Shown: piece after piece, positions 24,889 to 26,769 of the stretch | Position numbering within the stretch: position 1 is the stretch's first letter | How the letters are laid out: each line of letters begins with the position of its first letter | Origin: Eledone cirrhosa | Lineage: Eukaryota | Length of the DNA: 64,000 nt | Direction of reading: 5' to 3' | NCBI GenBank assembly: GCA_964016885.1 | Contig: OZ024752.1 | Location: 32,054,001 to 32,118,000, forward strand | Notes under the pieces: model-generated | What the model was told of the DNA's origin: nothing | Database searches by the model: none | The model's input: the letters and a program-made list of their open reading frames with translations, nothing else | Program-made: the position numbers and the translations under genes

Positions 24889-25122
24889 TTAAAAACACAC
24901 AGATACATGCGGACACACACATATATACATGAATGCATCCGCACCCAACTGTGAGTTAAGGGTGCCAACTTCACCGATGTTGCTCAATGAATGACTGGGA
25001 CAGACCAATTCAGTTTGAACCAGACTGAACCAGTATCAGAGTTAAAAATACATTATGAAGAGAGAAGAAACATTTAGATATAATTAGTAATAAAATGTAT
25101 CATACCTAAACTGTTCCTAAAT

Positions 25123-25210
25123 TCCTCGACTACGTAGTTTCGTGGCATAAACAAAAACAATATATCAAAGATATAGAGTCCTTGCGAGGTCTGCCAACTT
25201 ATCAAGAGGA
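25123..25210 (-). ncRNA. minimal hammerhead, U3-A8 core variant
   Basis: Reverse complement of the motif at 25960-26047. Confidence 0.8.
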
Positions 25211-25959
25211 TACCTCATTTTACTAGTCTCAAGAACGCGTCTACACGACGTGAGAAAGAATCCCAAAAGGCGGAGGGGGAGATAGTCACGCGATATAACG
25301 GTCGAGAAACAGAGCTAAGCCTCTTATAACCACGAAGAAAATACCACGGAGGCGGAGGGGGTATTCATATCGAGGCCGTAGAAGAGGTAGTGAAGAAGGC
25401 GAGAAGTATGAGTAATGGAAGCTTTCCAGTTGTCCCCACACTTCAAAGATTGCTCGACCAGAGGGAGTTATTAATATATTTAAAAACACACAGATACATG
25501 CGGACACACACATATATACATGAATGCATCCGCACCCAACTGTGAGTTAAGGGTGCCAACTTCACCGATGTTGCTCAATGAATGACTGGGACAGACCAAT
25601 TCAGTTTGAACCAGACTGAACCAGTATCAGAGTTAAAAATACATTATGAAGAGAGAAGAAACATTTAGATATAATTAGTAATAAAATGTATCATACCTGT
25701 GTGTCCGCATGTATCTGTAATCTTTGAAGTGTGGGGACAACTGGAAAGCTTCCATTACTCATACTTCTCGCCTTCTTCACTACCTCTTCTACGGCCTCGA
25801 TATGAATACCCCCTCCGCCTCCGTGGTATTTTCTTCGTGGTTATAAGAGGCTTAGCTCTGTTTCTCGACCGTTATATCGCGTGACTATCTCCCCCTCCGC
25901 CTTTTGGGATTCTTTCTCACGTCGTGTAGACGCGTTCTTGAGACTAGTAAAATGAGGTA

Positions 25960-26047
25960 TCCTCTTGATAAGTTGGCAGACCTCGCAAGGACTCTATATC
26001 TTTGATATATTGTTTTTGTTTATGCCACGAAACTACGTAGTCGAGGA
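25960..26047 (+). ncRNA. minimal hammerhead, U3-A8 core variant
   Basis: TCCTC-TTGATAA-GTtGGCA...TGCCAC-GAAA-CTACGTAG-TC-GAGGA. Palindromic stem III; GUC triplet. Confidence 0.82.
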
Positions 26048-26550
26048 ATTTAGGAACAGTTTAGGTATGATACATTTTATTACTAATTATATCTAAATGT
26101 TTCTTCTCTCTTCATAATGTATTTTTAACTCTGATACTGGTTCAGTCTGGTTCAAACTGAATTGGTCTGTCCCAGTCATTCATTGAGCAACATCGGTGAA
26201 GTTGGCACCCTTAACTCACAGTTGGGTGCGGATGCATTCATGTATATATGTGTGTGTCCGCATGTATCTGTGTGTTTTTAAATATATTAATAACTCCCTC
26301 TGGTCGAGCAATCTTTGAAGTGTGGGGACAACTGGAAAGCTTCCATTACTCATACTTCTCGCCTTCTTCACTACCTCTTCTACGGCCTCGATATGAATAC
26401 CCCCTCCGCCTCCGTGGTATTTTCTTCGTGGTTATAAGAGGCTTAGCTCTGTTTCTCGACCGTTATATCGCGTGACTATCTCCCCCTCCGCCTTTTGGGA
26501 TTCTTTCTCACGTCGTGTAGACGCGTTCTTGAGACTAGTAAAATGAGGTA

Positions 26551-26638
26551 TCCTCTTGATAAGTTGGCAGACCTCGCAAGGACTCTATATCTTTGATATA
26601 TTGTTTTTGTTTATGCCACGAAACTACGTAGTCGAGGA
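26551..26638 (+). ncRNA. minimal hammerhead, U3-A8 core variant (tandem partner, +591 nt)
   Basis: Identical motif one period downstream of 25960-26047. Confidence 0.82.
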
Positions 26639-26708
26639 ATTTAGGAACAGTTTAGGTATGATACATTTTATTACTAATTATATCTAAATGTTTCTTCTCT
26701 CTTCATAA

Positions 26709-26769
<61 letters not shown>

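Follow-up and report, generated by a model that had tools for sequence, protein, structure and literature searches.

The origin of the tandem and inverted insertions made by retrozymes and Penelope-like elements is disputed: a circular RNA is one proposed template, and an unprocessed linear RNA is favoured in vitro. The question is raised here by a 64,000-nt stretch of the Eledone cirrhosa genome (contig OZ024752.1, positions 32,054,001 to 32,118,000; hereafter the window), which holds a tandem and inverted array of a 591-bp unit with hammerhead motifs. In this family each insertion keeps a record of its template: A>G changes that are private to one insertion, strand-specific and present throughout its array suggest that one monomer was read as many as eight times to produce both arms. 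The unit is probably a non-LTR retrozyme whose edited monomer circle was reverse transcribed from both ends of the target. A circular template was proposed as a hypothesis in 2014 (PMC4209133) and 2020 (PMC7229834); in the publications examined, as far as their main texts go, the copying step is proposed and not demonstrated, and the A>G pattern of the Eledone unit suggests how it may proceed. A literature search that covered main texts, few of them from subscription journals, found no paper showing such an insertion-private template record.

The unit and its hammerhead

The array comprises 3.1 units with a period of exactly 591 bases in both arms, and the plus and minus arms are 100% identical, as the original prediction of a tandem and inverted unit had held. 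With the unit numbered from the first base past the GUC (U1, window position 26043), the left arm (24883..25698, minus strand, 816 nt) runs from U21 to U245 and contains 1.38 units, while the right arm (25719..26713, plus strand, 995 nt) runs from U268 to U80 and contains 1.68 units. Between them lies a 21-nt junction piece (25698..25718, plus strand) corresponding to U209-229, from which the sequence jumps to U268. The outer end of the left arm is a position termed site B and that of the right arm a position termed site A; both lead into an (AT)n target (24263..24888 on the left, 26711..26925 on the right). On the plus strand, internal copies of these ends are found at 26120..26122 (site A, U80) and, 165 nt further on, at 26283..26287 (site B, U245), and directly past site B is a CTCC...GTCGAGCAA motif (26294..26311, plus strand) that is common to the 5' leaders of Hydra-clade elements. 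The diverged dispersed copy noted previously does exist; it is single-armed (37934..38430, minus strand), extends from U178 to U80 (site A), comprises 0.84 unit and is 98.6% identical. None of the six circular frames of the unit has a stop-free stretch longer than 86 codons, consistent with its description as non-coding. An endless open reading frame on the circle was considered, 591 being divisible by three, and rejected on finding 6-16 stops per frame. Relative to shuffles, the circular monomer gave folding z-scores of -5.6 for the sense strand and -1.3 for the antisense strand, and the linear monomer one of -6.9. Elsewhere in the window, an assembly gap of 200 bases (20414-20613) adjoins a 7.6-kb (TA)n tract.

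A motif search recovered all three predicted hammerheads, one per unit: motif 1 at 25960..26047 (plus strand, predicted cut after the GUC at 26042), motif 2 at 26551..26638 (plus strand, predicted cut after 26633) and the left-arm motif at 25123..25210 (minus strand). A fourth is in the second copy (38009-38096, minus strand). The two plus-strand cuts would delimit a 591-nt monomer (26043..26633). In motif 1, all on the plus strand, a 5-bp stem I (25960-64 with 26043-47) is followed by the core UUGAUAA (25965-71), a long stem II that puts 57 nt between the core boxes (25972-26028), GAAA (26029-32) and a stem III bearing an 8-nt palindromic insert. The motif thus displays the features of a type I hammerhead, namely a 3-8 pair (here U3-A8), the GAAA box, an NUH site (GUC), G10.1-C11.1 and helices I-III. 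The label 'minimal' does not fit, given the U3-A8 core and the 57 nt between the core boxes; minimal hammerheads of Penelope-like elements are short, with a helix II of 7-8 bp and little or no helix III. The U3-A8 hammerheads of Schistosoma Cercyon elements, as described in the main text of PMC4209133, share the compensated core swap and the palindromic stem III, and dimer cleavage and a circular template were proposed for them as well, but they are minimal motifs with a 7-8-bp helix II and are mostly single copies.

When the unit was shuffled 3,000 times with its dinucleotides preserved, a hammerhead-type motif appeared in 0 cases, using a descriptor written once the motif had been seen. Helix pairing is kept in 97.8% of cells across 28 variants with identities down to 83%, and two-sided covariation within the family was found at 0 of 28 pairs, the changes being one-sided; in both cases the motif itself had served to select the rows. 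Better support for a ribozyme than these within-family variants is given by other families of this genome, in which the hammerhead layout is kept while the helix sequences differ. An Rfam search returned no hammerhead at the gathering threshold or at E<=10, a short, canonical-core version of the unit's ribozyme had 0 matches, and in isolation the motif shows no gain in folding over shuffled sequences (z -0.8). The predicted active fold lies 1.6 kcal/mol above the minimum-energy fold in the monomer and the stem III palindrome pairs as a 10-bp duplex; these folding models make cleavage as a dimer plausible. Other hammerhead motifs, with a canonical core, a long stem II and a palindromic stem III, were seen in the window at 6278 (plus), 10507 (plus)/10396 (minus) and 24076 (plus)/23924 (minus), the latter two being head-to-head pairs in (AT)n. 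Across the genome, 13,212 matches to a short hammerhead pattern with a canonical core were found versus 31 for the control; they include arrays of ~31 units of 466 bp (for example at C1:5738326-5752444).

Judged from its sequence, the unit is a metazoan non-LTR retrozyme by every testable feature. Like the retrozymes described in the main texts of two studies (PMC7229834; 10.64898/2026.07.22.740005), it is a non-coding tandem repeat a few hundred bases long that carries one type I hammerhead per unit, has a GC content below 50% (41%), occurs in thousands of copies, yields a highly folded monomer and shares its genome with Penelope-like elements; a circular template was proposed for those retrozymes too. 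The published unit range is 51-972 bp. The retrozymes in those texts differ from the Eledone unit, in which the core is U3-A8 and stem II has 57 nt, insertions into (AT)n have two arms and two fixed ends, a leader motif is shared with other elements in place of pLTR homology to a known partner, and genomic evidence for a monomer template is available. The claim of a new family is therefore fair with respect to the family itself; the retrozyme kind, the U3-A8 core and the circular-template hypothesis were already in print (PMC7229834, PMC4209133). Cleavage and circles have been reported for coral, mussel and axolotl retrozymes, whereas the Eledone unit is known as sequence, and in the main text of a Xenopus study one of nine predicted retrozymes cleaved. 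The main text on the Octopus vulgaris repeat annotation (PMC13282606) has no mention of hammerhead, retrozyme or Hydra.

Two fixed ends and the Hydra-clade elements

The 3' half of the ribozyme has 7,634 exact matches in the 3.0-Gb genome and 0 in the control, and numerous copies of the unit are mutually 100% identical. With ~1.9 units per insertion at 45 loci on contig C1, the number of insertions is estimated at roughly 4,000. These counts, together with the ORF-less unit, bear out the view of a young non-autonomous element. Insertions were mapped at 86 distinct loci, a non-random sample consisting of the best DNA matches and the first pattern matches on contig C1, after removal of overlapping fetches of one insertion, of L058 (a local duplicate of L055) and of arms shorter than 80 nt or below 80% identity. 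L055 and L058 (C1, 19.62 Mb) are near-identical insertions 2.55 kb apart, reflecting either local duplication or an assembly duplicate. An older relative of the unit (L184 7016-7314), 72-83% identical and two-armed, with ends near A and B, adjoins a young copy.

The outer ends of these insertions follow a simple rule. The arms are head-to-head at 48 of the 86 loci, and 44 of the 48 have one A and one B end, with no A/A and no B/B combination (p about 1e-13); in the other four one end is elsewhere, in one case 3 nt past A. Single arms (n=38) end at A in 18 cases, at B in 18 and at another position in two. The 44 loci thus show the Penelope-type insertion pattern of tandem and inverted arms, a tail at one end and an AT-rich target. 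Arm ends lie inside (AT)n, where a target-site duplication cannot be read. The original prediction read the differing start and end points of the array as expected of a circular or concatemeric template; the left end is no arbitrary permutation point, being the second fixed end, U245, used genome-wide. Because the outer ends are two fixed sites, the argument for a circle from differing ends has to be replaced, and the variant pattern discussed below is the better evidence.

The same loci bear on three other readings of the unit: that it is no more than an autonomous element's terminal repeat, that it is an ordinary satellite, or that it results from mis-assembly. A parent element might hide among the Penelope protein candidates, which number more than 50,000 and of which 150 per search were scored. 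However, the arms are pure permutations of the unit at all 86 loci, with no LTR pair flanking a unique middle; nearly all outer ends enter simple repeats, and the joins between units, of which an array has up to 9.6, are exactly head-to-tail. Two-armed insertions are moreover spread over 48 loci on many contigs, and a separate sequencing run of very high depth (X3) contains both (AT)n junctions of the array. The unit has no reverse transcriptase and GIY-YIG open reading frame and, when compared with four autonomous families, proved to be the pLTR of none of them. A terminal repeat, a satellite or an assembly artefact is therefore extremely improbable.

The end rule is shared with autonomous elements, in line with the predicted Penelope-type mobilisation. 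P1, a candidate helper family of young autonomous Hydra-clade elements, is present in the window outside the unit as a 5'-truncated copy (3314..5408, minus strand) ending at its own site A. The family is very young, has an intact 773-codon ORF in many copies and forms a 3,599-bp unit in head-to-tail permutation; its two ends lie 115 nt apart, and all 8 of the 8 two-armed insertions in which both ends could be seen have a different one on each arm. A second U3-A8 hammerhead family obeys the one-end-per-arm rule in 4 of 4 cases, and one of its arms contains a frameshifted Hydra-type ORF. P1 and two further families, P2 and P3, bear the RWK, DKT, CxCX5C, CxxC and CxH motifs that, in the main text of PMC8557442, define the Hydra clade. 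In P1 and P3 the order of elements is long-stem hammerhead, site A, site B, CTCC...GTCGAGCAA motif and start codon, and the unit has this order minus the ORF. The motif upstream of a start codon had 337 matches versus 7 in the control, in at least five Hydra-type families. Extended homology of the unit was found neither to P1, P2 or P3 nor to the U3-A8 ORF family, and local alignment scores against the non-coding parts of four autonomous families were within the shuffle range, so the helper is identified to the level of the clade only. One P3 copy matches over 16 nt in antisense orientation, which was attributed to chance. Pfam, in a library lacking PF26215, assigned no family to P1 or to two of the window's Penelope-like fragments and gave a third one chance-level match; database relatives carry PF26215.

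These features can be compared with published systems. Hydra-clade elements, as described in the main text of Craig et al. 2021 (PMC8557442), also target (TA)n, form tandem and inverted insertions, have a tail at a single end and contain hammerheads; the unit differs in having no reverse transcriptase/endonuclease, a tail of 165 nt rather than 30-40 and many-unit arrays. Anole Poseidon in vitro, in the main text of Frangieh et al. 2024 (PMC11167929), likewise has two internal reverse transcription start sites bounding the tail, cutting and extension of both target strands, AT-rich targets and a predicted dimer. In Poseidon, however, the start site is non-homologous to the target and the same on both strands, whereas both sites of the unit have TAT/ATAT at their end, in agreement with the target sequence, and differ between the two arms.

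Other repeats were also seen in the window. Truncated Hydra-clade copies of three families are located at 3314-5408 (minus), 20614-21938 (minus) and 54088-54501 plus 55180-55624 (plus); the first and second of these families are very young, and each of the three has copies at other places in the genome whose ORF of 770-810 codons is intact. The second U3-A8 family is represented by 3' ends at 9158-9286, 12695-12823 and 38661-38741; one copy of this family sits behind a Hydra-type ORF. A hammerhead-like motif whose core reads CCGAAGA was seen in P3 (L177 4050-4230), and a short inverted element at window 37451-37699 is related. Fragments at 32378-33406 and 10948-11406, both on the minus strand, are taken from their motifs to be LINE-type reverse transcriptases, CR1/L2-like and RTE-like. 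A SINE-like repeat of 180-190 bp, which presumably resembles octopus SINEs, has many copies, some in tandem, at 42.5-52 kb and 59.3-61.8 kb.

Array-wide variants and the template

Variants were counted at the 64 youngest loci, the 22 older ones being left out together with 10 nt at arm ends, the positions at sites A and B and five variants seen in at least five young loci (three A>G, two T>C). Forty variants are present in every unit of an insertion, of which 21 are A>G and five T>C on the sense strand (p 1e-5); removal of the richest locus leaves 14 versus 5 (p 0.002). By contrast, A>G constitutes only 4 of the 59 variants private to a unit (Fisher p 5e-7 versus 21 of 40). At L232, seven A>G changes are found in all 7-8 units of both arms, and a word containing three of them has 7 genome-wide matches, all inside that insertion. 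L272 has four rare A>G changes in both of its units, and its word matches twice, both in L272. A word with a single change, distinct from the L232 haplotype, has 6 matches at 4 other loci. These two haplotypes, tested genome-wide in one assembly, are thus each confined to one insertion, as expected of the predicted monomeric template. Independent editing of a multimer would not yield identical units, which argues for one monomer read repeatedly into both arms. The array-wide A>G changes are presumably due to ADAR. In the predicted circle 8 of 15 A>G sites are paired, and the neighbour preference is weak. Several of the A>G sites are found at 2-3 loci each and could have been inherited as variants of a subfamily. 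In P1 (14 loci), 1 of the 11 shared variants is A>G, and no such bias is seen.

Could an uncut linear transcript of a tandem source locus have served as the template, with an enzyme dimer priming at A and B and the ribozyme being incidental? An unprocessed multimer is the template proposed for the anole element, whose ribozyme, according to the main text, is dispensable in vitro, ribozyme mutants inserting normally (PMC11167929), and such a template accounts for arms crossing the cut site as well as for the A/B rule. Editing of a multimer would, however, vary by unit, in conflict with the uniform L232 array; the L232 word was found nowhere else, and the result was replicated with L272. If a source locus were hidden, its own units would have to be uniformly changed, and the monomer step would be shifted to the generation before. 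An uncut multimer is thus an improbable template.

A monomer step could also be followed by multiplication through RNA-to-RNA copying, a cDNA circle, template jumps on the cut monomer, or DNA growth or homogenisation after insertion. All of these routes yield array-wide variants, and RNA-to-RNA steps have been raised in the main texts of PMC7229834 and PMC4209133. The variants are, however, common to both inverted arms, which end at sites typical of reverse transcription. Moreover, unit-private changes are strand-biased, unlike ordinary DNA mutation: G>A exceeds C>T by 14 to 4 (p 0.008) and T>C stands at 14 versus 4 (p 0.12), the direction expected of cDNA errors. The predicted cut site is traversed by 125 of 134 arms, and a cut linear monomer could therefore not be the template without a jump. 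Jumping from the cut end predicts a pile-up of 5' ends at the cut site, but the inner 5' ends show no clear excess there (4 within 5 nt, 2.3 expected). These routes are unlikely. The array-wide A>G changes of single insertions are likely to reflect a Penelope-type enzyme that copied one edited RNA circle repeatedly from both sides of the break.

Proposed pathway and other sequencing runs

The pathway that best fits these observations would begin with transcription of tandem copies. The transcript would be cut after GUC, probably with two motifs paired as a dimer by the palindrome of stem III, and the monomers would be ligated into a 591-nt circle, which may sometimes undergo A-to-I editing, putatively by ADAR. 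A Hydra-clade Penelope-like reverse transcriptase/endonuclease, possibly from one of the families described above, is likely to nick an (AT)n tract on both strands. The single circle would then be copied from the two fixed sites, one per DNA end and often for several rounds, the later ones presumably by strand displacement. The A/B rule is best read as the footprint of an enzyme dimer; since it fits a dimer on any template, it does not by itself demonstrate a circle. The genome contains intact candidates for the enzyme, and with two start sites mapped and a motif in common, the step should be reconstitutable.

A near-identical unit was present in 20 sequencing runs (X1-X20) with 17 organism labels from 16 studies, none on record as RNA; 8 of the 20 were inspected closely. 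The simplest reading of the other-label runs is carry-over of a very abundant repeat, transfer between species being a possible alternative. On a further reading, which is very improbable, the 591-nt circle would be a viroid-like replicon that also has a genomic phase: host-edited, it would be copied into DNA by a Penelope enzyme dimer rolling round it from two sites, would multiply as RNA too and would pass between species. Viral and metagenome contigs gave 0 matches to the unit. X1 and X8 each contain one closed, unit-length contig (620-621 nt) without a flanking junction, which was set aside as evidence for an RNA circle because tandem DNA gives such contigs equally. A contig from X7 with four A>G changes was likewise set aside, its depth being below 5 and the run type unspecified. 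In X10, young and older variants occur together, much as they do in X7.
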